A stretch of DNA of 64,000 nucleotides from a virus (IMGVR_UViG_3300033069_000781:55053-119052); one strand, 5' to 3'; counted from the first letter of the stretch, positions 3 to 59,296 are shown. Program-made: numbers and translations. The notes: generated from the letters alone by a model not told the origin.

Positions 3-293
3 TTCGGCAAAACCTATATCTGTGACTTAATAGATGAGGTGGGTACCAAATATACAGATATCTGTATGTATAAGGCTCAGTTCGGCGAGAATAAGATTGA
101 TGATATGGGAGTAAGCTCCAAGAGTTCTATTACTTACTGGGATTACGGCTACTGTATCACATGTCATAAAGCTCAAGGATCGGAATGGGCAGAGGTAGTA
201 GTGATCGAGGAGCAATCTACCTTATGGGATATGCGTAGATGGTCCTATACTGCGGCAACTAGGGCTAGTAAGAGATTGGTTTATTGTAGATGA
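3..293 (+). CDS. C-terminal end of RecD/Dda-like SF1 helicase (partial, runs off left edge)
   Basis: YGYCITCHKAQGSEW and RRWSYTAATRA are SF1 motifs V/VI; the frame is open back to position 3. Confidence 0.85.
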   Translation, partial: FGKTYICDLIDEVGTKYTDICMYKAQFGENKIDDMGVSSKSSITYWDYGYCITCHKAQGSEWAEVVVIEEQSTLWDMRRWSYTAATRASKRLVYCR

Positions 294-300
294 GTAACGT

Positions 301-933
301 ATGACAATAAGTGATCAGATCGCTAGGATTGATAAGATGGGTTTCCCTAAATCATGGAGACAAAAGTATTCATTTAACCAAGATCAAGCTCGCTATAAAC
401 AACCCTTTACATATAATCACCAGCGCTTCGATTCCGCTAAACTAACCGCATTTAGATTTGATAGAACGTTTGAGAACATCGAGAATAAGCGAATCGGAAC
501 GGAATGGACCAGTTATGTCACTGAGGCCTTCAAACAGCGCTGTCTATTAGAGGAGCATGCCCTAATAGCCAAGTTGAAACAACTAGAGCTTAGTAGTGAG
601 AAGTCAAATCCTTACTGGGGGTTTGGTGGACTCAAACTATACTACAGTATATTTACGCAAGAAACAGAACTAACTAAAAATAGCTACGATTATGAGGCCT
701 CTCGCTGCCCATTAGAGATCGATGCCTACATTAGTGGTAAGCGACTCTACATCTTTATGTGTATAAGTGTAACCAGGGAAGTTAATCCTGACTGGGTGCA
801 TAGATTCCCATCTTTTATTACGCCATATATAGATGAGGATAAGATACAGGATACACTCAAACCACTTAGAGACCAGTTCAATGAAATTAGTAAAAAAGAA
901 AACGAAACCCAAGAAGAAGCAGCCCAAGTCTAA
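301..933 (+). CDS. hypothetical protein
   Basis: 210-aa ORF in a tightly packed + strand run. Confidence 0.6.
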   Translation: MTISDQIARIDKMGFPKSWRQKYSFNQDQARYKQPFTYNHQRFDSAKLTAFRFDRTFENIENKRIGTEWTSYVTEAFKQRCLLEEHALIAKLKQLELSSEKSNPYWGFGGLKLYYSIFTQETELTKNSYDYEASRCPLEIDAYISGKRLYIFMCISVTREVNPDWVHRFPSFITPYIDEDKIQDTLKPLRDQFNEISKKENETQEEAAQV

Positions 934-11025: not shown

Positions 11026-11042
11026 TACGAGAAACATAAACC

Positions 11043-11080: not shown

Positions 11081-11159
11081 ATATCTATATATTTGTTAAA
11101 AGTTAATTAGCTAGATATGTTAGTTAGGTATATAAGAAAGGTTTTTAAGTCTCAGATAA

Positions 11160-11498: not shown

Positions 11499-11519
11499 AC
11501 TACTTGAAAGGTAGCGAAG

Positions 11520-13089: not shown

Positions 13090-13119
13090 TTGACTTTAGT
13101 TAAATCTATACATTAACTT

Positions 13120-13695
13120 ATGTCTGAATCTATAAAAACAATATTGGCCTTAGACCTCTCACTTAGCACTGGCTGGTGTATAACAAATACTTCAGATACA
13201 CCAACTTATAGAAGTGGTAAGTGGAAGCTAAGGAATACTGATCCTATTAGTCGAATAATATCACTCCAAGAAGAACTATACGAAGTACTTACATTTGATC
13301 ACATAGACTTAATAGTCTTCGAGAGGGTTGACTTCTCAAAGTTCCTACTAGCCTATGCATCCTATAATCAGCTACTAGCAATGGTTTACTTGTTCGCCGA
13401 TGGTAGTAATACCCCCCTCTATGGAGTTCCAACTGGAACTCTCAAGAAGTACAGTACTGGTAATGGTGGGGCCGATAAGGAAGCAATGGTTGCTGCAGCA
13501 AACCTTATATGGCCGGATAAGAACTTTGAGGTTAAAGCAGATAACGATGAAGTCGATGCTAGATTACTTGCCCGATTAGCCGTAGAGCACTTAACCAATC
13601 CATTACTAGCAGTAACCTTTAAAACTAATTTCGATACACGTAATCCTTTAGTAAAGGAAAAGAAACCTAAAAAGAAAAGAAATGTCAAGAAATAA
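13120..13695 (+). CDS. ruvC: RuvC-like Holliday junction resolvase
   Basis: ILALDLS..TG, VFE, LKKYSTGNGGADK..M, DNDEVDA. Confidence 0.85.
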   Translation: MSESIKTILALDLSLSTGWCITNTSDTPTYRSGKWKLRNTDPISRIISLQEELYEVLTFDHIDLIVFERVDFSKFLLAYASYNQLLAMVYLFADGSNTPLYGVPTGTLKKYSTGNGGADKEAMVAAANLIWPDKNFEVKADNDEVDARLLARLAVEHLTNPLLAVTFKTNFDTRNPLVKEKKPKKKRNVKK

Positions 13696-14158
13696 ATCTG
13701 TATATCTTGCTGGCCCTATAACTGGATTAACTTATAGCGAAACTATAAATTGGAGAGAAATAGCCACAAAAGAATTTAAGCTCTGTGGGATCGATGCTTA
13801 CTCTCCAATGCGTAATAAAGCCTATTTAGATAATGGAAAACCAATTGATCCTGTACAAACAAGAGATTTATCAAAAATCTTAAGTACCAATAAAGCCATA
13901 GTGAGCCGCGACTATAATGACGTATCGAACTCTGATTGTCTATTAGTCAACCTATTAGGGGCCACTAAAGTAACAATTGGAACAGTGGCTGAAATGGCTT
14001 GGGCCCATCAATTACGTAAGCCTATAGTATGTGCAATAGAGCAAGATGGAACCAATATACATGAACACGCCTTTATACAAGAATTCATAAATTTCAGAGT
14101 CAATAATTTAGACGATGCCATAAGAACCTGCTGCCATATACTTCTCTCATATAACTAA
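13682..14158 (+). CDS. nucleoside 2-deoxyribosyltransferase-family protein
   Basis: VYLAGPI, RD..DV..SD, GT.AEMAWA..L.KP. Confidence 0.85.
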   Translation: MSRNKSVYLAGPITGLTYSETINWREIATKEFKLCGIDAYSPMRNKAYLDNGKPIDPVQTRDLSKILSTNKAIVSRDYNDVSNSDCLLVNLLGATKVTIGTVAEMAWAHQLRKPIVCAIEQDGTNIHEHAFIQEFINFRVNNLDDAIRTCCHILLSYN

Positions 14159-14161
14159 GAA

Positions 14162-14791
14162 ATGAATACTGATAGATTAATAAACAATCACGCTCAAACT
14201 ATATTCTTACTCGGTGAGATGTGTGCTGGTAAAGATTATCTGGGTAAGATTCTATGTGAAGAACTAGGATATACCAGGATCGCATTAGCCGATGCTTTAA
14301 AGCACGAGGTGGCTGCTATACATGGTTTAACTATAGACGATATAAACCGTAATAAAGCGGTATGGAGACCGGAACTGCAGACCCACGGCGAGATGCGTAG
14401 GAAGCAGAATATTGATTACTGGGTTGATCAATTCTGGATAGCCCGAAATCTAATCAATGGTCCTGTAGTCTGCACCGATGCCCGCTATATCAATGAGGCT
14501 ACATCAGCTGTTATATGGCATGATAAGACCTGTGTAGTTCGTATATTGGTTCCTAAGGCTATTAGGCACGCTAGGGCAGTTGCGGCCTACGGAGAGGTAC
14601 CAGAATCAATCTATAACCATCCCTCGGAGTATCAGCAAGTCTTATGCCCATTTAATGTAGTCCTAAATGGTACATTACCTAGAGAGCAATTACATGGAGC
14701 TTTTCTTTCTTCAATAGAAGACTGGGTATCAATGGGCAAACCTATCTTTAGGCAGGACTTAGTCCTGGAATCAATTCAACAGGATAAATAA
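14162..14791 (+). CDS. deoxynucleotide monophosphate kinase-like P-loop kinase
   Basis: GEMCAGKD, ALADALK, R.ELQ..G...R, DARY.NE, H.SE. Confidence 0.8.
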   Translation: MNTDRLINNHAQTIFLLGEMCAGKDYLGKILCEELGYTRIALADALKHEVAAIHGLTIDDINRNKAVWRPELQTHGEMRRKQNIDYWVDQFWIARNLINGPVVCTDARYINEATSAVIWHDKTCVVRILVPKAIRHARAVAAYGEVPESIYNHPSEYQQVLCPFNVVLNGTLPREQLHGAFLSSIEDWVSMGKPIFRQDLVLESIQQDK

Positions 14792-15385
14792 ATGAGACTG
14801 ACCGGTCCCGAAATAAAGAAACAGATTGAGTTGGGTCTTATCGATATCACACCTTTTGATGAGTCCCAACTGGGGCCAAATAGCTATGATGTTAGATTGG
14901 CCCCAACCCTATACGAGGTTGAACAGCCCTATACAGGTAGATCTGTTATGTCACTAGGTGGCTTTCAGATGTCTAAAACGGAGCTAGCAGCTCTAGATAT
15001 AAAGCTACCTTGCTCCTATGTACATATTGAAATACCCGAAACTGGTTATGAACTCAAACCTGGCAAATTCTACTTAGGTGTAACTAAGGAGTTCACCGCT
15101 ACTAATGATTTCTTACCTATACTTGATGGTAGATCTAGTTGCGCCAGATATGGTATGACAGTTCACCAAACTGCAGGTTTCGGTGATGTCGGTTTCGCGG
15201 GCCACTGGACCCTAGAGATAACCGTAGCTCTCCCGCTAATAATATATCCAAACATTCGGATCGCCCAAGTAAGCTTTGAGCAAGTAATGGGCACTATAAA
15301 GAATTACAAAGACAAAGGCAACTATATAAATGAATACACAGAGAACCCTAAACCCCGTATCGGAAAACCCGGTAACTTCTTCTAG
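14792..15385 (+). CDS. dcd: dCTP deaminase
   Basis: PNSYDVRL, DGRSSCAR.G, AGFGDVGF.GHWTLEI. Confidence 0.93.
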   Translation: MRLTGPEIKKQIELGLIDITPFDESQLGPNSYDVRLAPTLYEVEQPYTGRSVMSLGGFQMSKTELAALDIKLPCSYVHIEIPETGYELKPGKFYLGVTKEFTATNDFLPILDGRSSCARYGMTVHQTAGFGDVGFAGHWTLEITVALPLIIYPNIRIAQVSFEQVMGTIKNYKDKGNYINEYTENPKPRIGKPGNFF

Positions 15386-18300
15386 ACCAATCTATAGTTA
15401 TGAACAAGCTAAAGCTGCTTCTACCGAGTACTTCAACGGAGATGAATTAGCGGCAGCTGTCTTTGTTGATAAGTATGCCCTCAGAAATGAGAAGAATGAG
15501 TTGGTGGAATTAACACCAACTGATATGCATTGGCGTATAGCTAATGAATTCGCCAGGATCGAGCAGAGGAAATTCAAAGATCCAATGAGTGCTCAGACTA
15601 TCTTCAATCTATTAGATAGATTCGCTAAGGTAGTCATGCAGGGATCACCCTCATATGGCATAGGTAACTACTATCAATATATATCAATTGGTAATTGCTT
15701 CGTAATACCCTCCCCCTTAGATTCGTATCTTGGAATCATGCATACCGATACCCAGATAACTCAAATCAGTTGTCGTAGAGGTGGTGTGGGCTGGAGTAAC
15801 TCCAAACTTAGGCCCGCCGGTATGCTGGTTAAGAATGCTGCCAAGACAACTAGCGGTATGATTGGGTTCGCTAAACGATTCTCTAATACAGTTAGAGAAG
15901 TTGGCCAGCATGGACGCAGAGGTGCCTCACTACAGGAGCTATCGTGCTGGCATCCCGAGATCATGGAATTCATCAAGGTTAAGCAGAACCTAACAGAGCT
16001 GACTGGTTCTAATATATCTGTAGATTTCTACGATGACTTCATGCAGAAGGTATTCGATCGGGCCGATATAAAGCTTCGTTGGCCTGTCTGTAAAGCCGAT
16101 GCAGATGAGATGAAGAGACCATTCCCAGAATGCGAGGTAGCAGCTAATGCTGGGCAGATCTGGGATGAGTTTATTAAGTCAGCTCATCTAATGGCTGAAC
16201 CTGGTTGTAAGTTTATGGATACAGTCCATAGAATGAGCCCAGGTGTTCCATATGGTCATATTGAAACTGCGAGTAATCCTTGTGTAACTGCAGATACTTG
16301 GGTAATGACTTCCGAGGGTCCACGAAGAGTATCAGATCTTATAGGTAAGAAGTTTAATGCGTTAGTAGGTAATCAGTCCTACGAATCCACTGTTGATGGT
16401 TTCTGGTGCAGCGGAGTTAAGCAAACTATAAAACTTAAAACTCTGGGAGGCTTCACAATTGAATGTACTCCTGATCATAAGTTACTATCGGCCCGGATTG
16501 AAAATGGCGTAAAAGTCACGGAATGGAAGGAAGCCCAGAACTTTACAACTAGCGATATGGTTGATGTAAATAACCATACTGGAGTTGAATGGGATGGTCA
16601 AGGCACAGACGATGAAGGATATCTAATAGGAACTATATTAGGTGACGGTCATATAACAGATAACAAAACAGCTCGCGTATCCTGGTGGGGCGAGAATAAA
16701 GGAGAGATGAAAGATTACACTCGTGATCTAGTTCATCGTACTTTGGATTGTAAGAGTAACCTTGGCTCTGGGTCCGTGGTTTGTAAATCTGCTGTAGACA
16801 GAGATTCAACTGGCTTTAGCTCTGTTAGATTACTAGAACTTACACAAACGTTCGATCTACATCACGATAAGAAGATTACAGATACTATAGAGAAAGCCAG
16901 TAGTGATTTCTATAGAGGCTTTTTACGCGGTTGGTTTGACTCAGATGGTACAGTTCAAATTAATCAGTCTAACGGGTCATACTCGGTAAGGTTAAGTTGC
17001 TCAACCCTACCAAATCTAGAGGTTGCCCATAGAATGCTTGCGCGTCTAGGTATAGTATCAAAGTTGTACGTCAACAGACGTGAGAGTGGGTATCGATCAA
17101 TGCCTGATGGTAGGGGTGGAAGCAAAGAGTACCCTTGCCAAGCTAACCATGAAATAGTAATTACCAAAAGTAACATAAGAGCATTCAGAGACAGTATAGG
17201 TTTTATTGATTCGTCGAAAGCGGAGAAGTTGAATAGAGTATGTGACCAATTTGCCTTATCAGCTGAAACCTACACAAGTAGAGTAATCAGCATAGAGAAT
17301 GGCTCAACTCAACCTGTGTATGATTGTACTGTTGATAAGGTGCATAGATTTGATGCAAACGGAATTACAATAAAAAATTGTGGTGAGCAAAATATGCCAC
17401 CCTATGCTTCTTGCAGATTACTCCTACTCAACCTAATCAGTTATGTTCGCAATAAATTTAAGCCCGACGCTTACTTTGATTTCGAGGCTTTTGCTGCAGA
17501 TGTCAAGATATTACAACGACTAGGCGACGATCTAGTTGATATCGAGATCGAGTGTATCGATCGAATACTAGATAAACTTAGCCGCGATCCTGAACCGGAT
17601 TACATAAAGAAACCAGCGGTTGATCTCTGGGAGAATGTACGCAGAGTAGCCCTATTGGATCGTAGGACTGGTTGTGGGTTCACCGCTCTAGGTGATACCA
17701 TTGCGGCCCTAAATATGAAGTATGGTTCAAAACTCAGCATAGAATTCGCGGAGAAGATGCAGAGAATATATGCTCTATCTGCTTATAGATCATCTGTAGA
17801 GATGGCAAAGGAGCTAGGTCACTTCCCTGAGTTCGATGCTAAGTTAGACATACAATCTGGATTTATTCAGTTAATACAAAAAGAGGATCCAGAACTTTTC
17901 AGCGATATGCAGAAGTGGGGCCGTAGAAATATGGTCCTATTAACTGTAGCCCCGGTGGGATCCCTGAGCTGCGAGACTCAAACAACCTCTGGAATGGAGC
18001 CTGTATTCCTACTCTACTACACTAGGCGTAAGAAGGGTAATCCTGGAGATTCAGGATTTAGAACTGATTCTATAGATGCCAATGGCGATCACTGGATGCA
18101 TTTCGATGTCTATCATAAAGGTCTACAGGACTGGATGGATATTACGGGCAATAAGAACATCAAAGATAGCCCTTACTACGGGGCATCAGCCAATGATATT
18201 GATTGGTTATCCAGAGTGACTATGCAGGCTACCTTACAGAAGTGGATTGACAACTCTATTTCTAGTACAGTTAACTTGCCTCAAGATGTGCCCGTAGAGA

Positions 18301-18965
18301 CCGTAGACAAGATCTATAAGACGGCGTGGAAGATGGGCTGTAAAGGTATAACCATCTATAGAGATAAGTGCAGGGATGGTGTATTGGTATCCAAGGAGCC
18401 CGAGAAGAAGCTTTCTGGTAAAGAGCAGGCACTTGCCGATAGACTATGGCATGAGTATCTAGAGACTAAGCCGGTTAAGAGACCTAAAGAATTAGCTTGT
18501 GATATCCATCACACTAAATCTAAAGGTGAAGACTTCTTTGTATTAGTTGGGTTAATGGATAATCACCCCTATGAAGTCTTTGCTGGTAAGAATGGCACAG
18601 TGACCTCTGCTAAAACTGGGACTATTACTAAAAATAAAAGGGGTCATTATGAGCTCAAAGCAAGTGATGACTCCGTAATAGAGAATGTCTGTGATTTACT
18701 CACAGATGAACAAGCCGTAATTACTAGAATGGTAAGTCTATCCTTAAGGCATGGTTCCAACGTATCCTTTATAGTGGATCAATTAGAGAAGGCTCCAGGG
18801 GATATGACAAACTTTGGTAAAGCTCTAGCTCGAACTCTAAAGAAATACATAAAGAATGGCTCCAAGGTAACTGGTGCTACTTGTACTAATTGTGGATCAT
18901 CCGACATAGTTAGACAAGAGGGTTGTCAGACATGCTCTGGCTGTGGTAGTAGTAAATGTTCATAA
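15330..18965 (+). CDS. nrdJ: class II (adenosylcobalamin) ribonucleotide reductase with intein
   Basis: GNCFV, RRGGVG, GRRGA, SNP/CGEQ split by intein, RRTGCG, APVGS, GITIYRD, C-terminal TSCPD-like domain and Zn ribbon; no R2 subunit nearby. Confidence 0.92.
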   Translation: MNTQRTLNPVSENPVTSSRPIYSYEQAKAASTEYFNGDELAAAVFVDKYALRNEKNELVELTPTDMHWRIANEFARIEQRKFKDPMSAQTIFNLLDRFAKVVMQGSPSYGIGNYYQYISIGNCFVIPSPLDSYLGIMHTDTQITQISCRRGGVGWSNSKLRPAGMLVKNAAKTTSGMIGFAKRFSNTVREVGQHGRRGASLQELSCWHPEIMEFIKVKQNLTELTGSNISVDFYDDFMQKVFDRADIKLRWPVCKADADEMKRPFPECEVAANAGQIWDEFIKSAHLMAEPGCKFMDTVHRMSPGVPYGHIETASNPCVTADTWVMTSEGPRRVSDLIGKKFNALVGNQSYESTVDGFWCSGVKQTIKLKTLGGFTIECTPDHKLLSARIENGVKVTEWKEAQNFTTSDMVDVNNHTGVEWDGQGTDDEGYLIGTILGDGHITDNKTARVSWWGENKGEMKDYTRDLVHRTLDCKSNLGSGSVVCKSAVDRDSTGFSSVRLLELTQTFDLHHDKKITDTIEKASSDFYRGFLRGWFDSDGTVQINQSNGSYSVRLSCSTLPNLEVAHRMLARLGIVSKLYVNRRESGYRSMPDGRGGSKEYPCQANHEIVITKSNIRAFRDSIGFIDSSKAEKLNRVCDQFALSAETYTSRVISIENGSTQPVYDCTVDKVHRFDANGITIKNCGEQNMPPYASCRLLLLNLISYVRNKFKPDAYFDFEAFAADVKILQRLGDDLVDIEIECIDRILDKLSRDPEPDYIKKPAVDLWENVRRVALLDRRTGCGFTALGDTIAALNMKYGSKLSIEFAEKMQRIYALSAYRSSVEMAKELGHFPEFDAKLDIQSGFIQLIQKEDPELFSDMQKWGRRNMVLLTVAPVGSLSCETQTTSGMEPVFLLYYTRRKKGNPGDSGFRTDSIDANGDHWMHFDVYHKGLQDWMDITGNKNIKDSPYYGASANDIDWLSRVTMQATLQKWIDNSISSTVNLPQDVPVETVDKIYKTAWKMGCKGITIYRDKCRDGVLVSKEPEKKLSGKEQALADRLWHEYLETKPVKRPKELACDIHHTKSKGEDFFVLVGLMDNHPYEVFAGKNGTVTSAKTGTITKNKRGHYELKASDDSVIENVCDLLTDEQAVITRMVSLSLRHGSNVSFIVDQLEKAPGDMTNFGKALARTLKKYIKNGSKVTGATCTNCGSSDIVRQEGCQTCSGCGSSKCS
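16281..17378 (+). mobile_element. LAGLIDADG intein (366 aa) in RNR
   Basis: starts CVTADTWV; block B CTPDHK; LIGTILGDG and FLRGWFDSDG; ends VYDCTV...ANGITIKN followed by Cys+1. Confidence 0.93.
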
Positions 18966-44711: not shown

Positions 44712-46211
44712 ATGCTAAACATTGCTCCAACCCTTTGTATAGATTTCTATAAAACTGGTCATATCGATATGTACCCAGAAGGTACAGAACTAGTATTGGC
44801 CAATATGACTGCTAGGTTTAACAAACTATCAAGTATTCGTAATTGCCCCATACTAGAGGATGCCACTATATTCAGCGGTCTGCAGCTCTTTATCAAATCA
44901 TTCCTAATGGAATCGTTTGATAGAAACTTCTTTGATCTCCCATTGGATAAGGTGCTTAAGACCTATAAGAGAAGAATGGATACTTCTCTTGGCAAGAATG
45001 CGGTCAGGACCGATCATATCCAGGCCCTGCATGAGTTGGGCTATTTACCTCTGATTATCAAAGCATTACCCGAGGGTACCTTAGTTCCAATTGGTGTGCC
45101 TTATTTTACGATAATGAATACCCATAAGGATTTCTATTGGTTGACTAATTACTTGGAGACGATAATGTCTGCAAGTATTTGGAAGGGTATAACTTCAGCT
45201 ACTACTGCCTTTGCATACAAATGGCTACTTACTGATGCGGCACGCAGTACGGGGGCTTCGTTAGATTTTGTTAAGTTTCAGGGACATGACTTCTCAATGC
45301 GTGGTATGAGTGGAATAGACGATGCCTGTATGAGTGGGTTTGGTCATTTGACCTCTTTTGTTGGTACCGACACTGTACCAGCAATTGACATAGCAGAGCA
45401 ATACTATAATGCTGATGCCGAGAAGGAGCTAGTTGGATGCTCAGTGCCGGCAAGCGAACACTCAACTCAATGCGCTGGCAGTAAGGAAGAGGAACTTGAG
45501 ACCTATCGCAGGTTGATTACTAAACTCTACCCGAGTGGAATAGTTAGTATCGTCTCTGATACATGGGACTTCTGGAGAGTACTTACAGAGTTCACGGTTA
45601 GTTTGAAACCTGAGATCATGGCTAGAAAGGGTAAGGTAGTCTTTAGGCCTGATAGTGGTGATCCCGTTGATATCTTGTGCGGTGATGCTTCCGCTCCAGT
45701 AGGTAGTCCTGCTTATAAGGGAGCCGTTGAATGTCTATGGGATATCTTTGGTGGAATCACTAATGATAAGGAATTCAAGGAACTTGATCCACATGTTGGG
45801 CTAATCTATGGTGACGCTATTACCTATGATAGAGCACTGAAGATTCTGTATAGATTAGCTAAAAAGGGTTTTGCTTCATCCAATGTAGTTTTTGGTATTG
45901 GGTCATATACCTATGAGTACTGCACCAGGGATACTCACGGTATAGCGGTCAAGAGTACCTATTGCGTTATCAACGGTAAACAAGTACCTATCTTCAAGGA
46001 TCCAGTTACAGATAAGGATAGTTTGAAGAAGTCCGCTGTTGGTATGCTTAAGGTTATTAGAGATAGCAATGGTGATTTAACTCTGATTCAAAATTGCCAA
46101 GTAGACATGAATTTCAGCGACGATCTGCTTGAAGTAGTATTTGAGAACGGTATGCTCAAGAGAGACCACACCCTCGCCGAGATTCGTGAGAGAATCGATG
46201 GTTACCTTTGA
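44712..46211 (+). CDS. nadV: nicotinamide phosphoribosyltransferase-like protein (Namat/NadV)
   Basis: DFYK.GH, HDFSMRG, SF.GTD, PASEHS, SIVSDTWD, RPDSGDP, LIYGD, FGIGS, KDP.TD. Confidence 0.93.
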   Translation: MLNIAPTLCIDFYKTGHIDMYPEGTELVLANMTARFNKLSSIRNCPILEDATIFSGLQLFIKSFLMESFDRNFFDLPLDKVLKTYKRRMDTSLGKNAVRTDHIQALHELGYLPLIIKALPEGTLVPIGVPYFTIMNTHKDFYWLTNYLETIMSASIWKGITSATTAFAYKWLLTDAARSTGASLDFVKFQGHDFSMRGMSGIDDACMSGFGHLTSFVGTDTVPAIDIAEQYYNADAEKELVGCSVPASEHSTQCAGSKEEELETYRRLITKLYPSGIVSIVSDTWDFWRVLTEFTVSLKPEIMARKGKVVFRPDSGDPVDILCGDASAPVGSPAYKGAVECLWDIFGGITNDKEFKELDPHVGLIYGDAITYDRALKILYRLAKKGFASSNVVFGIGSYTYEYCTRDTHGIAVKSTYCVINGKQVPIFKDPVTDKDSLKKSAVGMLKVIRDSNGDLTLIQNCQVDMNFSDDLLEVVFENGMLKRDHTLAEIRERIDGYL

Positions 46212-50169: not shown

Positions 50170-50206
50170 AATTCTTGCAGGCCTGCAAGAATCTAACATA
50201 TGTTTA
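50170..50206 (+). repeat. 37-bp element with a 22-bp perfect palindrome and a start codon, copy 2
   Basis: identical to 19001-19037. Confidence 0.9.
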
Positions 50207-51339
50207 TTCAAAACACCAAATCCAACAAAGAGGACCCTGCCACTAAGATAATGGGTAGGGAATTCCCATTTAATTCGGAGCATAAAGGAAATACACAAGA
50301 AATGGATAGTCCAGAACAACCTAAGCCTGCTAATCCTAACCCTGGAGCTACCACGGGCCATCTCGACTCCACATTACCCCTGATTAAACAGTTAGCTAGG
50401 AAAACCTCCCGTAACAAGGTAATCATAAATAACAATCTCGGTAGGAAGCGTAGTGCCCCAAAGGTAATGGAGGCCACAGAGAAGGTTGCTTTTGTTAATA
50501 GGGTCATAGATATCTTGAAGAGCTCTCAATTAGAGAAGAGTGCTGATCTTAAGGGTATGCTAGCCAAGGCGCTACAGACCGCTGTGGGGTCCAGAACTCC
50601 AGGGGCTGCACTGAAGGGTATAGGATCCACTGTAGGTAAAGGGGCCCTTAATTGGGCTGTACCCCTAGCCGCAGGTGGTGCTACAGCTTATAAGGCGCAT
50701 GAGGAGGGTATGTCACCCTTTAGTTCTGGTATGTTAGGACTAGCCGCTGGATCTGTTGCTTCTCCTAAGATGTATAGTAGTGCATTTAAGGCTGGATTAA
50801 AATCGCCCGAAGGTCCTATTCCTGGATTCATGAATCATTTAAAAGGCCCTATTATTAACAAGGCCTTATTAACCGGTTTAGCTATTGCACCAGAGGGAAT
50901 CTCCCATGTAAATAGCACCCTACGTAACGCTAAAACTATCAGCGACGATTTAGCAGGTAGTACCGCTAACTTAGAGGGTACTTCCAATAAACTTCAAGCA
51001 TCTTTAGCCAACACCTCTGGTAATTTGGAGAGCTTAACTAAGAGATTAGACAACTCAAGCTCACAAGAAGCGGGACAAGGTTTTGTTGAAGGTGGTCTGA
51101 CAGCCTTAGGTAATGTGGCCAAGAGTCCATATGTCTGGGGTACCGCTGCTGGTCTAGGTGGGCTCTATGGTGGATATAAGTTATTGGATAAATATTTGCA
51201 ATACAAAGCTAAGACTGAGCAGGCTAAAGCGAGAGCTATGATGCCACCTAAGCCTCCGAAACCAAATGTGGTAAACTTAGATGATGTATTAGCCCGACTC
51301 AATAGATCTCAGCATCCTGGTATAGAAGTACCTCAGTAA
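50200..51339 (+). CDS. Gly/Ala-rich membrane-type protein with K-x-A motifs (putative internal virion protein)
   Basis: EKVA, EKSA; glycine-zipper segments. Confidence 0.6.
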   Translation: MFIQNTKSNKEDPATKIMGREFPFNSEHKGNTQEMDSPEQPKPANPNPGATTGHLDSTLPLIKQLARKTSRNKVIINNNLGRKRSAPKVMEATEKVAFVNRVIDILKSSQLEKSADLKGMLAKALQTAVGSRTPGAALKGIGSTVGKGALNWAVPLAAGGATAYKAHEEGMSPFSSGMLGLAAGSVASPKMYSSAFKAGLKSPEGPIPGFMNHLKGPIINKALLTGLAIAPEGISHVNSTLRNAKTISDDLAGSTANLEGTSNKLQASLANTSGNLESLTKRLDNSSSQEAGQGFVEGGLTALGNVAKSPYVWGTAAGLGGLYGGYKLLDKYLQYKAKTEQAKARAMMPPKPPKPNVVNLDDVLARLNRSQHPGIEVPQ

Positions 51340-51344
51340 TCTAA

Positions 51345-51719
51345 ATGTTCGATTCACCAGATAATCTTAGTGAAGGCAATGTCAATTATCCTATGGGTGA
51401 TCCCTATGGATTTTCAGCTCAGTATGCTCCATTGCCATCAGCAATGGCGGTAGTATCGGATACCTCACTGAGCCCTATACAGAAGACCTTAGCTCTACAA
51501 TCGATTAGACTAGCCTCTGAGAAGAGTAATAACAAAGGACTCTTCAGTACTGAGGATTTAGTACACGGCTTCGTAGGGGCAGGGCTAGGCTATGCCGCCG
51601 CTACCGTAACTGGTAAGGTCTTAGGATCAGTATTTGGCCTATCTCCGGATCACCAATCTCAATTAGCTAATATGGGTGCAATTGGTGGGTTACTGAAATC
51701 AACTGGTATTTGGAAATAA
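51345..51719 (+). CDS. glycine-zipper membrane protein
   Basis: GFVGAGLGYAAATVTGKVLG, GAIGG. Confidence 0.6.
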   Translation: MFDSPDNLSEGNVNYPMGDPYGFSAQYAPLPSAMAVVSDTSLSPIQKTLALQSIRLASEKSNNKGLFSTEDLVHGFVGAGLGYAAATVTGKVLGSVFGLSPDHQSQLANMGAIGGLLKSTGIWK

Positions 51720-51722
51720 GAA

Positions 51723-52115
51723 ATGGAAAAAGTATCTTACAACTATAGAGCTGCCCTCAGACAAGGCCTACTCCAGTCGCTAGCTGAGAATGGTATTACT
51801 CCCTCGGATATATACAATAAGTATATGAACAAGGTGGCTGGGGACGGTATCACATCAGTTCTAGATGTTGGTGGAACTATTGGCGGTATAGCTAAAGGGC
51901 TAGGTACGCTATTAGTCGATTACCCCGTCGCTACAGCTATTGCGGGCGGGTCCGCTGCGGGGCTTGGGGCGGGTTGGGGTATAGGCAAAATGATGCAGTT
52001 GCCTGAGGGTGATCCAATCGAGGATCTAAAGAACCAAGAGCTAATCAAGGAACTTAGATATCAGACAATGAATCAGAAGTTGAAGCAGAGGAGATCATCA
52101 ATTAATGGCCTCTAA
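51723..52115 (+). CDS. glycine-zipper protein with K-x-[A/S] motifs
   Basis: MEKVS, NKVAG; AIAGGSAAGLGAGWGIG. Confidence 0.6.
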   Translation: MEKVSYNYRAALRQGLLQSLAENGITPSDIYNKYMNKVAGDGITSVLDVGGTIGGIAKGLGTLLVDYPVATAIAGGSAAGLGAGWGIGKMMQLPEGDPIEDLKNQELIKELRYQTMNQKLKQRRSSINGL

Positions 52116-52461
52116 AGTAAGAGAACAATTAAGAATTATCCCATCTCCTGGATTCGATGGGTTACCTTTTCGTGGGCTAACTATCCCAGATCTAGTTAAA
52201 GATGGCCCTCAGCCCGTAGAGGTCCTAGATGCTAAGGTTAGAGTATTCGATTTATCGGATACAAAACAGTTAGCTGAATATGAAGCTATATGCGATAAAG
52301 TAGCCAAAGGTCTATTCTTGATGAGTAGAGAAGAGATGGAATGGGTACCAGAGAACAAGAACTGGATGGTCATGATAAGGTTCTTACCCCGATATGCTGA
52401 GGAAGCCGGTAAGCATCTGAATAGATTGAAATTTGATTCCGAGAGAGGATACGTAACTTAA
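52105..52461 (+). CDS. hypothetical protein
   Basis: 118-aa ORF; GLPFRG, VRVFDLSD. Confidence 0.65.
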   Translation: MASKVREQLRIIPSPGFDGLPFRGLTIPDLVKDGPQPVEVLDAKVRVFDLSDTKQLAEYEAICDKVAKGLFLMSREEMEWVPENKNWMVMIRFLPRYAEEAGKHLNRLKFDSERGYVT

Positions 52462-52471
52462 ACATATACAT

Positions 52472-54250
52472 ATGCCAAACCCATTCACACTAAAGGACTA
52501 TAGAGACCCATCGGTCCATGCCCAGGCCGGCTCTGCAATAGCCTCCGAGACCACTAAGCCTTATCTTGCCCTTGGGGCTTCCGCTATTGGTGGAGCTGGG
52601 CTACTCTATCTCCTCAAGAAGCACCTAGATACTTATCGTCTAGCTCCCGATAAGAATAGGTCATTTAAGAACAACGTAATGGATTCGGATTCAATTCCAT
52701 TAGCCGAGAAGCTATCCGATTTTAATTCAGGATCTATTCTCGGAGGGGCTGTTGAAGGTCTATCTGGCGCTGCCAATCAAGCCCTAGGTAATGATGGTAT
52801 AGCTAATAATTCGGGTAATTCTTTAAAGATGCTGGCCTTAGCCGGTGGTATTCCCACAGCTATCTTTGGTACACTAGCCCTCAAGAATCTAATTGATAAG
52901 TCCTATAAGATACCTAATAGTAGGCAAAAGGAATTAGATCAGGCTAGCTCTGAGTATGCCGATCTAATGAGTAACCAGGGTAACTTTGGTTCACCCAAGA
53001 TGGCCTCCGTTAATGCTTATCTTGAAGCCCTAGAGGATCATATTATCGATAAGACCTCTCACTTCAATTTATCCGAGAAATCAGCTAATCTATATAGCTG
53101 GCTACCCGCCCTTGCATTAGGGGTCGGTATACCAACTGCATACATGAAGGCTAAGTCAATGATTGATAACGATCCCGCTGTTATCAAGCGTAAGGCCTCC
53201 GAGGATGCGGTTAGGCGTATGCGTATGCTTAACCCACCTAAGATGAATGTGGTTATTGCGAATACCCCCGAGGAATATGAAGAGCTAAATAGACTCGATA
53301 ATACTTCTAGAAATCTGATTCCTATACTTAGACCACAGAGTAATAGTGGGGTTGGCAATAGTAACAGTCCTCATGGTGATAGCTCAGATGATATCTTTAA
53401 TAAGCTATCTCATGTTATTAACCCAGCGATCCGTAATGAGGTAGATGTGCTAGAGAAGCGCGCTAATTTGTATGGTACTTCTTTAAAGGAGTGTCGTGAG
53501 TTCTGGAAGCAGGCCTCACCTATAGTTAAGCGATCTCTAATCAAGATAGCGGAGGGCTTCAATATGCAAGAAGCTTTCGCTAATGTATCACCGGAGCAGA
53601 TGGCTAGAACTTTGAGTGCTATGCCTCCAGAGACTATTGGTTACTATTTAAACCATTTGAGGCAGACTAATCCTGCTGCCTTGGAACAGCTAGGTGGTGC
53701 TCATCTACCGGACCAGCAGATTATGGGTAATTTAAATGGAATGCTGACCCAGCATAATTGGTGGGACCCTATGGGATGGAAGAATGGTTATGTTAAGTCT
53801 CAATTACTACATGGGTTGGGGCAAATGAATCAGTCCAATCAGGGCCAACCTCAACCTCAGATGCCTACCCAACCTGGACCATATCAGGGTCCCGATGGTC
53901 CAATGGGCCCGCAACAGCAACCCCCTAGGCATAACGCTGCCATTAACTTCATGGGTAATCTCAATCCATGGCAAATAGGTATAGCAGCTGGAGCCGGTGG
54001 GCTAGGATTAATGACTGGACATCCAATACTAGGATTAATGGGAGCGGGGGCAGCTCTAGGTGGACCCGCACTCTGGAAAAAATATGTAGATTCCAGAATG
54101 ACCAGTGATCCATCAAAGATGACTGGTTGGATGAATAGCTATATGAAGAGGACTCCAGAGGGACCAATGGGACCTCAGCCCCTACCAGCAGCTATGCCTA
54201 ACCATTCCATGAGTAATACACCTAGCCCTATGTCCCACGCTGCGGCCTAA
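52472..54250 (+). CDS. multi-segment Gly/Ala-rich protein with eight K-x-[A/S] motifs (putative processed virion protein)
   Basis: EKLS, PKMA, DKTS, EKSA, NKLS, EKRA, WKQA, IKIA; several hydrophobic helices. Confidence 0.6.
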   Translation: MPNPFTLKDYRDPSVHAQAGSAIASETTKPYLALGASAIGGAGLLYLLKKHLDTYRLAPDKNRSFKNNVMDSDSIPLAEKLSDFNSGSILGGAVEGLSGAANQALGNDGIANNSGNSLKMLALAGGIPTAIFGTLALKNLIDKSYKIPNSRQKELDQASSEYADLMSNQGNFGSPKMASVNAYLEALEDHIIDKTSHFNLSEKSANLYSWLPALALGVGIPTAYMKAKSMIDNDPAVIKRKASEDAVRRMRMLNPPKMNVVIANTPEEYEELNRLDNTSRNLIPILRPQSNSGVGNSNSPHGDSSDDIFNKLSHVINPAIRNEVDVLEKRANLYGTSLKECREFWKQASPIVKRSLIKIAEGFNMQEAFANVSPEQMARTLSAMPPETIGYYLNHLRQTNPAALEQLGGAHLPDQQIMGNLNGMLTQHNWWDPMGWKNGYVKSQLLHGLGQMNQSNQGQPQPQMPTQPGPYQGPDGPMGPQQQPPRHNAAINFMGNLNPWQIGIAAGAGGLGLMTGHPILGLMGAGAALGGPALWKKYVDSRMTSDPSKMTGWMNSYMKRTPEGPMGPQPLPAAMPNHSMSNTPSPMSHAAA

Positions 54251-54265
54251 TCTAACTAATAAATC

Positions 54266-54304
54266 AATAGCTAAAATAAAGAGTCCTATATGGGCTCTTT
54301 ATTT
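54266..54304. terminator. bidirectional-type hairpin with reverse-oriented TTAGCTATT
   Basis: AATAGCTAA then AAATAAAGAGTCC-tatat-GGGCTCTTTATTT. Confidence 0.65.
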
Positions 54305-54324
54305 ATTGACACCTTAAGCTATAC

Positions 54325-57300
54325 TTGGGTATGGCCATATTCGATCAGAAAGCTCCTATTAAATCATTAGATAGAGAAGTAGCTCCAGGGGTGCCTACTC
54401 CTGTAACGCCCGCACCCGCACCCATCGAGATGCGGGACTTCTTAGATATCGATAAGCAGAGATCCAATATCTTTGATAATGTCCATAAGTCCTTAAGTAC
54501 AAAGTTTCCAGTTGAGAACGATAACTACCGATTGGAACTGAGTGATATTAGGTATGAGAAGAATAAGCCTTACTCATTGAAAGAGCAAAAGGATGCCATC
54601 ATGAATAGGCAGACCTTGGACTGGCCTATTAGAGCGAACTGGAGATTGATCGATAAATCAACAAATCATCCGATATCCGAGGCCCGTAAAACCATTACTA
54701 GAGTTCCATACCTAACTAATAGGGGTACCTATATCTTTAGGGGTAATGAGTATGTGCTATCAAATCAGGCTCGTCTACGCTCAGGTGTCTATACCCGTGA
54801 GAAAGAGAACGGTGAACTAGAAGCCCACGTTAACTTAATGCCTGGGACCGGCTCTTCATTCCGTATCTTTATGGAACCATCGACCGGTATCTTTAAGTTC
54901 AAATTAGGTCAGGGCTCGGTGCCTGCCTATCCCGTACTCAAAGCTCTAGGAACCACTGATGACCAAATGAAGGCAGCCTGGGGTGATCAGATCGCCTCTG
55001 TTAATGCCACTAAGTCTAGAGACTTCGATCTATCCAAAGTATATGATAAGTTAGCTAGTCCACGGATTCGTAAACAATTCATTGACGCAGGAGCTGGGCT
55101 TAGAGCTACATTCTCTCAGATGGCTCTAGATCCCGAGGTCTCCAATCGTACCCTAGGTAAGCCCTATACGGCAGTTAACTCCGAAGCATTGGTTAGGACA
55201 ATGCAGAAGTTACTACATATCAATCAAGGTAAGGAGGAGCAGGACGATAGAGATAACCAGGCCAACATGCAGCTCTATGGTCCCGAGGATCTATTCGCTG
55301 AGCGTATTTCAAAGGATAGCGGTAATTTAAGTAGGCAACTACTCTGGAAGCTTACCCATACGAAAGATGTCAATAAGATCCCGGCGGGTTATCTATCAAA
55401 GCAGATCTATTCAACTCTATTGCATAGCGGTATAGCATCTCCTATCTCAGAGATCAATACCTTAGAGATCTTGGATCAGTTATCCCGAGTTACCCGAATG
55501 GGTGAAGGTGCTCTGACCTCACAGGACTCGGTCCCCGATGAAGCTAGAAGCGTGCAGCCATCTCAGTTAGGTCTGATTGATGTAATAAGGGCTCCAGAGT
55601 CGGTCTCTATTGGTGTAGATTCCAGATTAGCTATCAATACGTTGAAGGGTTCGGACGGTAAGATCTACCGCAAAGTACTGGACCGTAACGGTAAGGAGCG
55701 TGTAGTTTCTAGTCATGACCTAATTAACGGTATCTACGCCTTTCCGGGTGAGATGCAAAAAGAGGGTACTAAGGCTAGAGCATTGGTAAATGGTAAGATA
55801 CGATATGTAGATAAGAAGTCAGTAGATCATGTATTACCTAGTGGTTCCGATATGTTCTCGTTTCTAGGTAACATGGTGCCCGGAATGAGCGGGGTCAAAG
55901 GTGGCCGAATGGCCATGGGTTCTCGTATGATAACCCAGGCACTACCACTCAATAACCCAGAGGCACCTTTGGTTCAGAGTGCCATGCCCAATGATCCATC
56001 GAAATCCTTTGAGGAGTTAGCCACTAAGTATAGTGGTAATGTTGAGGCCAAGGAGGCCGGTAGAATAACTGGCATCTCACCTGATGCTATTGATGTTGTC
56101 TATGGTAACGGTAAGAAGGATTCCATTGAACTCTATAACAACTTCCCATTCAATCAGAAGAGCTTCATTCATAACACCCCTATGCTCAAGATAGGGGATG
56201 TCTTCAATAAGGGCGATCTATTAGCTCGATCAAACTATACTGATAAGACTGGTAAAGCGGTATCACTAGGAACTAATTTAAGAGTGGTCTACTTACCCTA
56301 TAAAGGTAACTATGAAGACGCCATCACTATCTCAGAGGGAGCCGCTAAGAAGTTAAGCTCGGAACATATGTATTTAACAAAGGTACCTCATTCAGAGGGT
56401 ACCATCACCGGTAAGAAAGAATTCATTTCAAACTTCCCCGGGCAATTCAGTAAGGCTCAATTAGATAATATTGACGACTCCGGAATAGTTAAGCCTGGCA
56501 CAGTACTTCATGAGGGCGATCCTATTGTTATTGGAGTTAGGCAAAAGGAACCTACCAAGGGTAATGCTCTACTTAGACAGACACGCTCATGGAATATGCC
56601 ACACCTAGAAACATGGGATCATGCCGATCCAGGTTTAGTTACTGATGCTATAACTTCTACGGATGGTATAAAGGTAGCTGTTAAAGCTTATCAGCCCATG
56701 AGTTTAGCGGATAAAATGGCTGATAGATTTGGCTCCAAGGGTCTAGTGGGTCGAATAGTTCCCGATGATCAAATGCCAAAAGATGCAAACGGAAATCCAT
56801 TCGAGGTAATCTTCAACCCCCTGAGTATTATCTCACGGGTAAATCCAACTAAGCTAGTTGAGACATTACTGGCCAAGGTGGCCCGTAAGACCGGAAAGAC
56901 CTATAAGTTGCCAGCGTTCATGGATGATTCAATGGCGGACTGGGCTCTAGAGGAGGCCCGTAAGGCCGGGGTCTCCGAGAAAGAGAATGTATTCGATGCC
57001 GTATCAAATAAGGAACTGAAAGATATATTTACAGGTGAGCAGTTCTTTATGAAGCTCCACCATACAGCGGAATCCAAGTTATCCGTAAGAGATGCGGGAG
57101 CTTATACATTAGATGAGACTCCCGCTAAGGGTAGCTTTGGTCAAGCCAAGCGGGTAGGTACCATGGAGATCTCGGCCCTATTATCTCATAATGTACCATC
57201 TGTTCTCAAGGATCTGAAGTTAGTTAGAGGACAAAAGAATGATGACTTCTGGAAGGCTTATAAACAGGGCCTACCTACACCAAAGCCAGGTCAGACCTTT

Positions 57301-58758
57301 GTATACGATAAGTTCTTGAATATGCTTAGGGCTGGGGGTGTTCGGGTCAACTCCTCTGATAACGGTAATAAACTAAATGTATTAGCCATGAGGGATCAGG
57401 ATGTTGATGCCTTGGCTGGAACAAATGAGTTACTGAATGGTGATGCTATCAATATCAAAGATGGATCACCAGTAAAAGGTGGACTCTTCGACGTCTCAAT
57501 TACAGGTGGCCGTGAGAATAGAAAACAATGGGCTAAGATAACTCTGAATGATCCGGTACCGAATCCATTAATGGAGGAGCCAATCCGTAGGTTACTGGAT
57601 CTCACGGAGCCTAAGTTCATGGATTTACTGAAGAGTAGTAGTGGTCCTCAAAAGATTCTAGATAAACTGAAGGCTATCAATGTCAATCAAGAACTAGATA
57701 AGCAATATGGGATATTGAAAGACAATAAATTATCTAAGAGGGATAATGCTGTTAAGATTATTCAGTACTTGGAGACCGCTAAGAAGAACAAAGTTCACCC
57801 CTCGGAATGGATGATAACTAAGGTGCCCGTACTACCACCGGCGTTTAGGCCTGTTACAGCCATGGATGGTATCGAGTTGACTTCAGATGCTAATCTTCTC
57901 TATAAGGAACTATTTGAGGCCAATAAGAACTACGGTGAGGTCAAGAAGGATCTCGATGAAATAGGTCCCGAACGAGAGGCACTCTATAATTCCGTTAAAG
58001 CCGTTATGGGTCTAGGGGATCCCATTAACGTAAAGAATAGGGAGAAGAATGTGGGTGGAATGCTACAACATATCTTTGGTAAATCTTCACCTAAGTTCGG
58101 TATGTTCCAGCAGAAATTGATGTCTACTACTGTCGATTCTGTTAGTAGGGGATCAATGATTCCTGATGCTAATCTGAATATGGATGAGATCGGAATGCCA
58201 GAGAATATCGCCTGGGATCTCTATAGACCATACATAATGAGAAGGCTATCCAGGAAGTACAATAGCGGTGATCACTCAGTTCCAATGACTGATCTAGCTA
58301 AGTGGGTAATTAATAGAGATCCTAGGGCCAAGAAAGCTATGGAAGAAGAAATGGCAGAGAGACCCGTGATCTATAGCAGAGCTCCTACCTGGCATAAATT
58401 CTCAGTTCTAGCTGCTTACCCCAAACTAATAAAGGGTAATGGATTCACTAGCTCAGCTGTCAACTCGCCTGGCTTTACCCTTGATCATGATGGCGATAAT
58501 ATGAACTTCCATGTGCCAGCTACACAAGAAGCTGTTGATGAGGCCAAAGAGAAGATGCTTCCATCTAAGAACTTATTGAGTACTAATGACTTCAAGGTCC
58601 ATCTATTACCTAGGCAAGAATATCTCATGGGACTCTACTTAGCGACTCAAGAGGCCAAGAAGAAGGAGCCACGCCGATTCGCTACCTCTAAGGATGCGAT
58701 GCAGGCCGTTATGAGGGGTGAGTTAGGTATGACTGATCCAGTAGTAATTGTGGGTTAA
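54325..58758 (+). CDS. phage multisubunit RNA polymerase, beta fused to N-terminal half of beta' (likely start ATG 54331)
   Basis: beta motifs RGTYIFRGNE, NYEDAI, ADKMADRFGSKG, NPLSIISR, FMKLHH, GTMEISAL; beta' motifs GGLFD, VPVLPPAFRP, FQQKLM..VD, SRAPTWH, DHDGD. Confidence 0.93.
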   Translation: MGMAIFDQKAPIKSLDREVAPGVPTPVTPAPAPIEMRDFLDIDKQRSNIFDNVHKSLSTKFPVENDNYRLELSDIRYEKNKPYSLKEQKDAIMNRQTLDWPIRANWRLIDKSTNHPISEARKTITRVPYLTNRGTYIFRGNEYVLSNQARLRSGVYTREKENGELEAHVNLMPGTGSSFRIFMEPSTGIFKFKLGQGSVPAYPVLKALGTTDDQMKAAWGDQIASVNATKSRDFDLSKVYDKLASPRIRKQFIDAGAGLRATFSQMALDPEVSNRTLGKPYTAVNSEALVRTMQKLLHINQGKEEQDDRDNQANMQLYGPEDLFAERISKDSGNLSRQLLWKLTHTKDVNKIPAGYLSKQIYSTLLHSGIASPISEINTLEILDQLSRVTRMGEGALTSQDSVPDEARSVQPSQLGLIDVIRAPESVSIGVDSRLAINTLKGSDGKIYRKVLDRNGKERVVSSHDLINGIYAFPGEMQKEGTKARALVNGKIRYVDKKSVDHVLPSGSDMFSFLGNMVPGMSGVKGGRMAMGSRMITQALPLNNPEAPLVQSAMPNDPSKSFEELATKYSGNVEAKEAGRITGISPDAIDVVYGNGKKDSIELYNNFPFNQKSFIHNTPMLKIGDVFNKGDLLARSNYTDKTGKAVSLGTNLRVVYLPYKGNYEDAITISEGAAKKLSSEHMYLTKVPHSEGTITGKKEFISNFPGQFSKAQLDNIDDSGIVKPGTVLHEGDPIVIGVRQKEPTKGNALLRQTRSWNMPHLETWDHADPGLVTDAITSTDGIKVAVKAYQPMSLADKMADRFGSKGLVGRIVPDDQMPKDANGNPFEVIFNPLSIISRVNPTKLVETLLAKVARKTGKTYKLPAFMDDSMADWALEEARKAGVSEKENVFDAVSNKELKDIFTGEQFFMKLHHTAESKLSVRDAGAYTLDETPAKGSFGQAKRVGTMEISALLSHNVPSVLKDLKLVRGQKNDDFWKAYKQGLPTPKPGQTFVYDKFLNMLRAGGVRVNSSDNGNKLNVLAMRDQDVDALAGTNELLNGDAINIKDGSPVKGGLFDVSITGGRENRKQWAKITLNDPVPNPLMEEPIRRLLDLTEPKFMDLLKSSSGPQKILDKLKAINVNQELDKQYGILKDNKLSKRDNAVKIIQYLETAKKNKVHPSEWMITKVPVLPPAFRPVTAMDGIELTSDANLLYKELFEANKNYGEVKKDLDEIGPEREALYNSVKAVMGLGDPINVKNREKNVGGMLQHIFGKSSPKFGMFQQKLMSTTVDSVSRGSMIPDANLNMDEIGMPENIAWDLYRPYIMRRLSRKYNSGDHSVPMTDLAKWVINRDPRAKKAMEEEMAERPVIYSRAPTWHKFSVLAAYPKLIKGNGFTSSAVNSPGFTLDHDGDNMNFHVPATQEAVDEAKEKMLPSKNLLSTNDFKVHLLPRQEYLMGLYLATQEAKKKEPRRFATSKDAMQAVMRGELGMTDPVVIVG

Positions 58759-58767: not shown

Positions 58768-58842
58768 TAAATGCGTCATATTATAGTGCTAGTCATTAGC
58801 TCTCAATTGTTGAGAGCTAATTTTACATTAGCAATAAAGGAA
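58768..58842 (+). promoter_or_regulatory. promoter-hairpin-SD element, copy 5
   Basis: TAAATGCGTCATATTATAGTGCT...TTAGCTCTCAA-ttg-TTGAGAGCTAA...GCAATAAAGGAA. Confidence 0.8.
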
Positions 58843-58846: not shown

Positions 58847-59296
58847 ATGAAATCCGAGGATCGAATTGGTCAGAAGTTTGGTCACTGGACAATCATTGGT
58901 ATTGGATTTATTGACAAAGGCAAAGATCGAAAGTTCGAATGCAAATATTCTTGCGGTGATGTTCATTTCGTGAAGGCTGGAAATCTACGTGAAGGTAAAA
59001 CTAAGCAATGTAATAAATGCAGTCAGATTAAGTACGGAGAATCCCGCAAGAGATTGGCTAAAGCTAGACATAAGGCTCTAGGTCATGTGTTCAAGTCTGG
59101 AAAATACTACGATAGATGTAAATGCGGGAATCTGATGGATAAGACTGCTACACGCTGCATTAGTTGTACTCTGAAGTATCCAGTCAGACTCAAAGTACTA
59201 GCCGCACAATTTGGAATTACAAAATACGCGGTGAGGTATCAAATCAGGACCAAAGGGTATAAGAAGGCAATTAAATATTTAGAGCAAAGGAAATAA
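58847..59296 (+). CDS. Cys-rich DNA-binding protein, like the N-terminal domain of HNH/AP2 endonucleases but without a nuclease domain
   Basis: IGQKFGHWTII...CKYSCG...NLREGKTKQC; a second CxC/CxxC; HTH-like end. Confidence 0.6.
   Translation: MKSEDRIGQKFGHWTIIGIGFIDKGKDRKFECKYSCGDVHFVKAGNLREGKTKQCNKCSQIKYGESRKRLAKARHKALGHVFKSGKYYDRCKCGNLMDKTATRCISCTLKYPVRLKVLAAQFGITKYAVRYQIRTKGYKKAIKYLEQRK

Follow-up and report, generated by a model that had tools for sequence, protein, structure and literature searches.

How a large phage builds a bacterial-type RNA polymerase, and from which chains, is the question raised by a single open reading frame (ORF) at positions 54325-58758 (+) of the 64,000-nucleotide stretch IMGVR_UViG_3300033069_000781:55053-119052, referred to below as the window. 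The sequence belongs to an uncultured large phage and is a linear IMG/VR fragment of 119 kb, estimated to be 47% complete (CheckV); the end of the window is also the end of the contig. A sequence-only reading of the ORF had proposed a fusion of the beta subunit with half of beta-prime, acting together with a second, separately encoded chain and packaged in the virion. The best overall explanation of the data presented here is a two-chain, phage-specific and probably packaged polymerase, to which we assign a probability of about 75%.

A fused chain of beta and the front of beta-prime

The ORF opens at a TTG codon and extends for 1477 codons, with a stop after residue 1477. The ATG at 54331 is the likely start of the polymerase coding sequence (54331..58758, +), giving a protein of 1475 amino acids (P0002), while the residue numbers used here follow the 1477-residue chain counted from TTG 54325 (P0001). 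Pfam domains lie along the chain in the order Rpb2_3 (residues 376-438), Rpb2_6 (601-929; E 2e-41, 142.6 bits against a cut-off of 23.4), Rpb1_1 (1142-1208, scoring under the Pfam cut-off) and Rpb1_2 (1270-1410; E 4e-18, 66.7 bits against a cut-off of 25.3), and the PHROGs matches were to phage families named "RNA polymerase beta subunit" and to two unnamed families. The proposal that one ORF passes from beta motifs directly into beta-prime motifs was borne out by this domain order, and each motif quoted in its support was found where it had been placed: FLNMLRAGGVRV at residues 997-1008 (nucleotides 57313-57348), GGLFDVSITGG followed by RENRKQWAKITL at residues 1052-1074, TLDHDGD at residues 1385-1391, and QEYLMGLYLAT at residues 1431-1441.

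A profile hidden Markov model (HMM) of the family, built from 35 members, was used to map the chain onto beta and beta-prime of E. coli/Salmonella. It aligns first with beta residues 52-1339, the gaps on this side corresponding to the E. coli lineage-specific inserts SI1 and SI2, which are not present in the phage chain, and then with beta-prime residues 37-63 and 160-550. The beta module occupies residues 1 to about 1010 (54325..57354, +) and the N-terminal beta-prime module residues about 1011-1477 (57355..58755, +; E. coli about 21-552), the latter comprising clamp helices, lid, rudder and double-psi barrel. An AlphaFold model of the C-terminal 493 amino acids (residues 985-1477) had a mean predicted local distance difference test score (pLDDT) of 81. 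Using VIA-align, model residues 34..493 were matched to E. coli beta-prime 21..552 (Z about 20.6, about 445 residues aligned), and the Foldseek matches of the model were bacterial beta-prime and the cyanobacterial/plastid gamma subunit, with gamma chains ranked first (8gzh_D and 9dvs_D; E about 1e-28). The clamp helices are present in both the model and the alignment. The structural alignment stops at E. coli residue 552, and the protein does end soon after QEYLMGLYLAT, without the bridge helix and trigger loop.

The chain comprises the whole of beta and, after an almost linker-free junction, the catalytic first third of beta-prime (E. coli residues 1 to about 552). This junction, placed by alignments and structure, runs from the beta C terminus FLNMLRAGGVRV to the beta-prime N terminus at 57313..57444 (+). 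Relative to bacterial equivalents the chain is shortened by about 15-25%, so that the term "minimal," applied to it earlier, holds in a relative sense only.

Active site, zinc-binding region and rifampicin pocket

The beta catalytic motif ADKMADRFGSKG is located at 56707..56742 (+), where K797 and K805 correspond to E. coli K1065 and K1073; these two residues, R1106 and E813/D814 (E. coli numbering) are all conserved in the fused chain. Motif reading and the family alignment place the catalytic loop of beta-prime, TLDHDGD, at 58477..58497 (+), and its three aspartates are invariant in the alignment of 35 family sequences. Among 113 members with a readable loop, NADFDGD (n = 42), GADFDGD (n = 41) and GMDFDGD (n = 11) made up most of the family, TLDHDGD was found solely in this phage, and NLDHDGD, GADNDGD and GGDNDGD were present in close relatives. 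Because the change is confined to this phage and lies at positions tolerating variation, TLDHDGD is not a family hallmark. It is a local variant, the family consensus being N/G-A-DFDGD.

The deletion of the N-terminal Cys4 zinc-binding domain of beta-prime, also proposed previously, follows from the absence of any cysteine among the 1477 residues. The site of the missing domain, GGLFDVSITGG-RENRKQWAKITL (57478..57546, +), was located from the alignment and the cysteine count, and in 35/35 aligned members this segment is a short Gly-rich loop, GGLFDxxLTGG-H-GG-NRW. The equivalent of the rifampicin pocket (E. coli beta 505-538) was mapped with the family HMM to 55414..55515 (+). R529 is conserved, and the changes in the pocket are Q513S, F514P, D516S, H526Q, S531T and L533M, substitutions that, going by known resistance mutations, predict insensitivity to rifampicin.

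Distribution and phylogeny of the family

Queried with this one protein, IMG/VR gave no relative. A search of 5.8 billion proteins identified more than 1368 homologues, typically 1450-1500 amino acids long and on contigs of up to 217 kb, which share both the beta/beta-prime join and the end point of the chain. The cultured members are gp206 of Salmonella phage Arash and its counterparts in Vibrio phages D69, D148 and D181, with 30% identity across 96% of the length in each case. The layout is thus already present in cultured phages and in more than 1300 database proteins, and the protein studied here is an ordinary representative of its family. The family itself is undescribed: no paper describing a beta/beta-prime-N fusion in phages was found in the full-text literature searched, two reviews of jumbo-phage polymerases describe split subunits only (PMC7598289, PMC7824862), and in the Arash paper gp206 is labeled "subunit beta" and the fusion goes unmentioned (PMC10585845). 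The claim of novelty is therefore narrower than first made, although the literature searched contains no description of the fusion. The present analysis contributes the cysteine depletion and how it relates to abundance in virions, the finding that relatives keep the second zinc site, the placement of inteins, the substitutions in the rifampicin pocket, a phylogeny and counts of the loop motifs.

A maximum likelihood tree was built from 1413 columns for 18 phage chains and 16 bacterial RpoB+RpoC sequences. One branch, with a support of 100 in the Shimodaira-Hasegawa-like approximate likelihood ratio test (SH-aLRT), parts the 18 phage chains from the 16 bacterial sequences, and in this unrooted tree P0001 is sister to P0007, with Arash and the metagenomic contig L013 as deep branches. 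Neither a donor nor an age is claimed, given the limited sampling of bacteria, an alignment that was fitted to the profile of the family and the lack of a root. With metagenome contigs there is a general risk that a fusion of this kind stems from misassembly or a false frameshift, or from a piece of bacterial rpoBC binned wrongly as viral, and nothing further speaks for such an origin; given the same join in over 1300 independent proteins and in isolated phages, the strongly supported separation from bacteria, and flanking genes that are phage-like, it is scarcely credible.

Longer members (P0003, P0010, P0011, P0035, P0037, P0084 and P0118) bear inteins at P0001 positions of about 426, 799, 838 and 1391, within or adjoining catalytic motifs, and the commonest site is position about 1391, inside the D-x-D-G-D loop. 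Inteins exactly at catalytic sites are as expected of an essential enzyme. Extra in-chain domains were seen in some relatives (e.g., P0023, P0025, P0027, P0036 and P0051), including SET (PF00856), GNAT (PF00583), PF22547 and a 2',5' RNA ligase-like domain, and some long relatives have additional sequence near P0001 position 250. In two cases the fusion goes further: L013 (162-kb contig, 5938-12144) encodes a 2069-amino-acid single chain that runs on into the C-terminal part of beta-prime (beta-prime-C), with four of its five cysteines at the second zinc site, and L014 (204-kb contig, 5953-14571) encodes a 2873-amino-acid full beta/beta-prime fusion with inserts. These contigs had been binned into a cyanobacterial and a Bacteroidales metagenome-assembled genome.

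The partner chain and other subunits

A gene with Rpb1_5, the domain of the bridge helix and trigger loop, was found downstream of the fused gene and on the same strand in 4/4 close relatives (50-63% identical). The distance to it is 2.0 kb in L002 (63% identical), 1.4 kb in L003 (52%), 2.3 kb in L005 (55-56%; sister in the tree) and 6.4 kb in the contig of P0012 (50%), and in Arash beta-prime-C is gp216 (606 amino acids), 4.8 kb downstream of gp206. The beta-prime-C of the relatives begins at E. coli beta-prime residue about 572 and holds the bridge helix, the second zinc site and the trigger-loop region, with no SI3. Arash gp216 contains exactly four cysteines in the arrangement C-x51-C-x6-C-x2-C, which resembles the second zinc site, and the spacing of the C-x6-C-x2-C triplet recurs in L002, L003, L005 and L013. 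A wholly zinc-free enzyme was considered and rejected, because the partner chain of the relatives keeps this second site. The beta-prime-C genes of L002, L003 and L005 also contain inteins.

The complete Arash genome has one Rpb2_6 (beta-type catalytic) domain and two sigma region-2 matches (gp196 and gp10), and the 119-kb record likewise has a single copy of Rpb2_6. No match to RNA_pol_L (alpha) was obtained in the record or in the complete Arash genome, with 14/14 control genomes matched, although a divergent alpha-like protein is possible. A search for the T7-type polymerase (PF00940) had no match; the control genomes were without a match likewise, so this result is uninformative.

A functional two-chain polymerase is very likely on this evidence. 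The large chain would supply both catalytic barrels, the clamp helices, the lid and the rudder, and the second chain, a beta-prime-C of about 600 amino acids, would supply the bridge helix, the trigger loop and the second zinc site, so that no element of the bacterial catalytic core would be missing from the pair. The covalent join of beta and beta-prime probably replaces the alpha dimer as the scaffold for assembly, because no alpha was found in the complete Arash genome. In bacteria, the clamp helices bind sigma. Since the chain retains these helices and sigma-like factors occur in relatives, promoter recognition would probably be directed by a phage sigma, and one core enzyme may serve the entire infection.

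Cysteine depletion and virion packaging

The complete lack of cysteine in the fused chain compares with 1.6% cysteine in the other ORFs of the phage (chance about 3e-11). Sixty of the 66 intein-free relatives are also without cysteine, and per equivalent segment there are 6-21 cysteines in bacterial sequences versus 0-1 in the phage chains. In mass spectrometry of Arash virions, gp206 ranked first among the proteins detected, with 128 unique peptides and 3516 spectra; gp216 gave 1210 spectra and the sigma gp10 gave 467 (PMC10585845). The cysteine content of Arash proteins was examined for 55 genes of at least 149 amino acids in two regions, with the virion class defined by at least 15 unique peptides. 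Cysteine made up 0.30% of residues in the virion class versus about 1.2% in weakly detected or undetected proteins (Fisher p 3e-13; 4e-10 without the polymerase chains), and of the two sigmas, the virion protein gp10 has no cysteine and gp196, which was not detected in the virion, has three. In the genome studied here, seven of the 83 ORFs of at least 150 amino acids are cysteine-poor, the largest three being adjacent at 50200-58758, and in L002, L003 and L005 the genes that surround the polymerase gene are also cysteine-free.

Four Arash proteins, gp206, gp216, the helicase gp217 and gp218, gave similar numbers of spectra per residue (about 1.9-2.4). The helicase has no cysteine, and gp218 weakly matches a gene of roughly 790 amino acids that follows beta-prime-C in L003; gp217 and gp218 may be packaged together with the polymerase as additional components. 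With Arash gp10, gp4, gp217, gp218 and other abundant virion proteins as tblastn queries, no match was found in this genome.

It is somewhat more probable than not that the enzyme of this phage is packaged in the virion. It would be packed in the capsid and delivered with the DNA, allowing early genes to be read without the host polymerase. A chain that has shed its N-terminal zinc domain and all cysteines would suit a protein that has to survive outside the cell. The packaging proposed by the sequence-only reading had been argued from the position of the gene at the end of a virion-protein-like block. That argument fails, because the upstream block is without known virion homology, and it is the Arash proteomics and the cysteine depletion that make packaging plausible.

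Evidence against a packaged two-chain enzyme

Several observations weigh against the preferred explanation, some of them bearing on packaging and others on function. The virion evidence comes from Arash, a relative 30% identical to this chain. In addition, 116/252 Arash proteins were reported as virion-borne and carry-over was raised by the authors themselves (PMC10585845); with so many proteins reported, contamination is likely for the weaker detections. No homology to known virion proteins was found in the neighbors of the polymerase gene using Pfam, PHROGs and other searches. A control comparison in phiKZ gave 0.61% cysteine in the virion polymerase chains versus 1.16% in the nonvirion chains, a weak, two-fold difference; the virion subunits were taken by us to be gp80, gp149, gp178 and gp180, as backed solely by the annotation "structural head protein." Because this control is weak, cysteine avoidance supports, rather than proves, an extracellular life.

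The possible carry-over and the lack of virion homology around the gene would suit a two-chain polymerase that is made after infection for middle or late genes and is not packaged. The Arash signal would then come from a very abundant intracellular enzyme, and numerous proteins of clearly nonstructural function, such as ribonucleotide reductase, primase and ligase, were detected too. The strength of the signal speaks against this: gp206, with its 128 unique peptides, had the top spectral count of all Arash proteins, and the spectra per residue of gp206 (2.3) and gp216 (2.0) are comparable to those of major structural proteins. The extreme avoidance of cysteine also matches that of the robust Arash virion set, and since Arash has one polymerase set, its early genes would need the host enzyme if that set were unpackaged. 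We regard an unpackaged enzyme as unlikely.

On the side of function, Rpb1_5 was not found in the chain or in the 119-kb record, 47% complete, using the profile and tblastn with the proteins of four relatives. Sigma and alpha were not found in this incomplete record either, which counts weakly. Furthermore, Thr replaces the asparagine of NADFDGD in this phage. In bacteria, that asparagine helps to hold the substrate ribose. Taken to the extreme, the chain could be an inactive remnant that has lost its beta-prime-C, with TLDHDGD, a departure from the family consensus, as a mark of decay. This is very improbable, as the frame is open for 1477 codons with every catalytic residue kept, and NLDHDGD, GADNDGD and GGDNDGD in related members indicate that the position tolerates change. 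Moreover, the contig ends 5.2 kb downstream of the polymerase gene, and the spacing to the partner in relatives reaches 6.4 kb. Because the record stops so soon after the gene and is incomplete, the missing beta-prime-C neither refutes nor confirms the two-chain enzyme; the separate partner gene that had been predicted is a fact of the four relatives and Arash and, by the same arrangement, is expected just beyond the contig end in this phage. An extension of the contig was sought, but there was no exact match for the terminal 98-amino-acid ORF, nor, among metagenome contigs, for a 35-mer near the end.

A wider proposal can be made, tentatively, for a very large clade of phages of 150-220 kb. 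Their alpha-less enzyme of two chains, or of one in some members, would have been purged of all cysteines but the four ligands of the second zinc site, with the join as its scaffold, and the purge and the loss of the N-terminal zinc domain would have adapted it to being stored in the capsid and passed through the tail. As a single core enzyme, packaged alongside a sigma-like factor that lacks cysteine, it would make infection independent of the host polymerase from the first minute. We consider this full scheme possible, though less probable than its opposite.

Comparison with known polymerases

Arash (gp206, 1525 amino acids, and gp216; OQ632216.1) and Vibrio phages D69, D148 and D181 share the full-length fusion, in a chain that stops at the same point, lacks the zinc domain and contains 0-1 cysteine. 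Arash differs from the phage studied here in sequence (30% identity), in its catalytic loop (AADYDGD) and in having a complete genome with sigma genes, whereas this record is half a genome. The polymerases of phiKZ, AR9 and PBS2 are similar in being phage two-barrel enzymes without alpha or omega, in that beta-prime is cut past the catalytic barrel and in having one of their sets packaged in virions (PMC7598289, PMC7824862, PMC4666361). However, their beta is in two or three pieces and never fused to beta-prime, and they have two paralogous sets where Arash has one. In phages of the phiKZ/AR9 type, a sigma factor was not found (PMC7824862). The phiKZ-type layout, with beta and beta-prime in several polypeptides and a second set, is not that of the present phage, in which beta is whole and fused. 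Similarity to AR9 is limited to residues 790-961 (E 4e-8), compared with E 1e-53 for bacterial beta (PDB).

In RpoBC of Helicobacter and Wolbachia, beta is joined head-to-tail with beta-prime at the natural termini, and the protein is full-length and unsplit, with zinc domain, alpha and omega. The phage chain of L013 resembles it in being fully single-chain but is without the zinc domain. In cyanobacteria and plastids, beta-prime is divided into gamma (RpoC1) and beta-prime (RpoC2) and is likewise cut past the catalytic barrel, but gamma is not fused to beta. The place of the cut also differs, as the phage chain ends at E. coli residue 552 and the gamma chains align to their residue 606. Gamma also retains the zinc domain.

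Neighboring genes and intergenic motifs

Two of the ORFs upstream of the polymerase gene share its avoidance of cysteine and have no family match, one of 379 amino acids with no cysteine (50200-51339, +) and one of 592 amino acids with one (52472-54250, +). The sole match of the latter is a 549-amino-acid neighbor gene in L002, with 32% identity. As the portal gene holds this position in Arash, the 592-amino-acid ORF was considered as its counterpart, and this was rejected (BLASTP E 2.3). Between this gene and the polymerase gene there is a terminator-like 11-bp hairpin with a T-rich run (54276..54302, +), which was identified by eye and was not listed by a scan of the sequence.

Directly after the polymerase stop, a 21-nucleotide motif, AAATGCGTCATATTATAGTGC, is followed by a 12-bp hairpin (58769..58821, +). 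The motif is near-invariant in six copies, all intergenic and on the + strand, with none expected by chance; five are in the window, at 25557, 31341, 34571, 37076 and 58769, and one is upstream of it, at genome position 2618. TTAATAAA stands before it, and AATAAAGGAG and a start codon come after it, in most copies beyond an intervening hairpin; it overlaps a weak sigma-70-like match, TTAATA-18-TATTAT. From its sequence and placement, AAATGCGTCATATTATAGTGC is a candidate phage promoter class. A copy heads the 5.2 kb of small genes between the polymerase gene and the contig end, which are without counterpart in the closest relatives; the first of these genes (58847-59296, +) weakly matches the HNH endonuclease family phrog_374 (E 3e-8).

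Elsewhere in the window, the large subunit of ribonucleotide reductase (15330-18965, +) is split by an intein that carries a LAGLIDADG endonuclease (Pfam Intein_splicing and LAGLIDADG_3). Positions 4365-6401 and 44712-46211 (+) encode, respectively, an NAD-dependent DNA ligase and a nicotinamide phosphoribosyltransferase. The latter enzyme is also present in Arash (gp157), which hints at an NAD-salvage module common to the two phages.

Implications

If two chains, or one in some relatives, suffice, this would be the simplest natural bacterial-type multisubunit RNA polymerase, and would show that such an enzyme can do without the alpha platform and the N-terminal zinc domain. With cultured hosts available in Salmonella (Arash) and Vibrio (D69), the enzyme is tractable for studies of assembly, sigma use and promoter recognition. 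It would represent a third architecture of virion-packaged phage polymerase, beside the single-subunit enzyme of N4 and the many pieces of phiKZ/AR9. A cysteine-free composition could mark packaged or ejected proteins of uncultured phages from sequence alone. As the family is very common in metagenomes, host-independent transcription among large phages may exceed what the jumbo-phage literature suggests.

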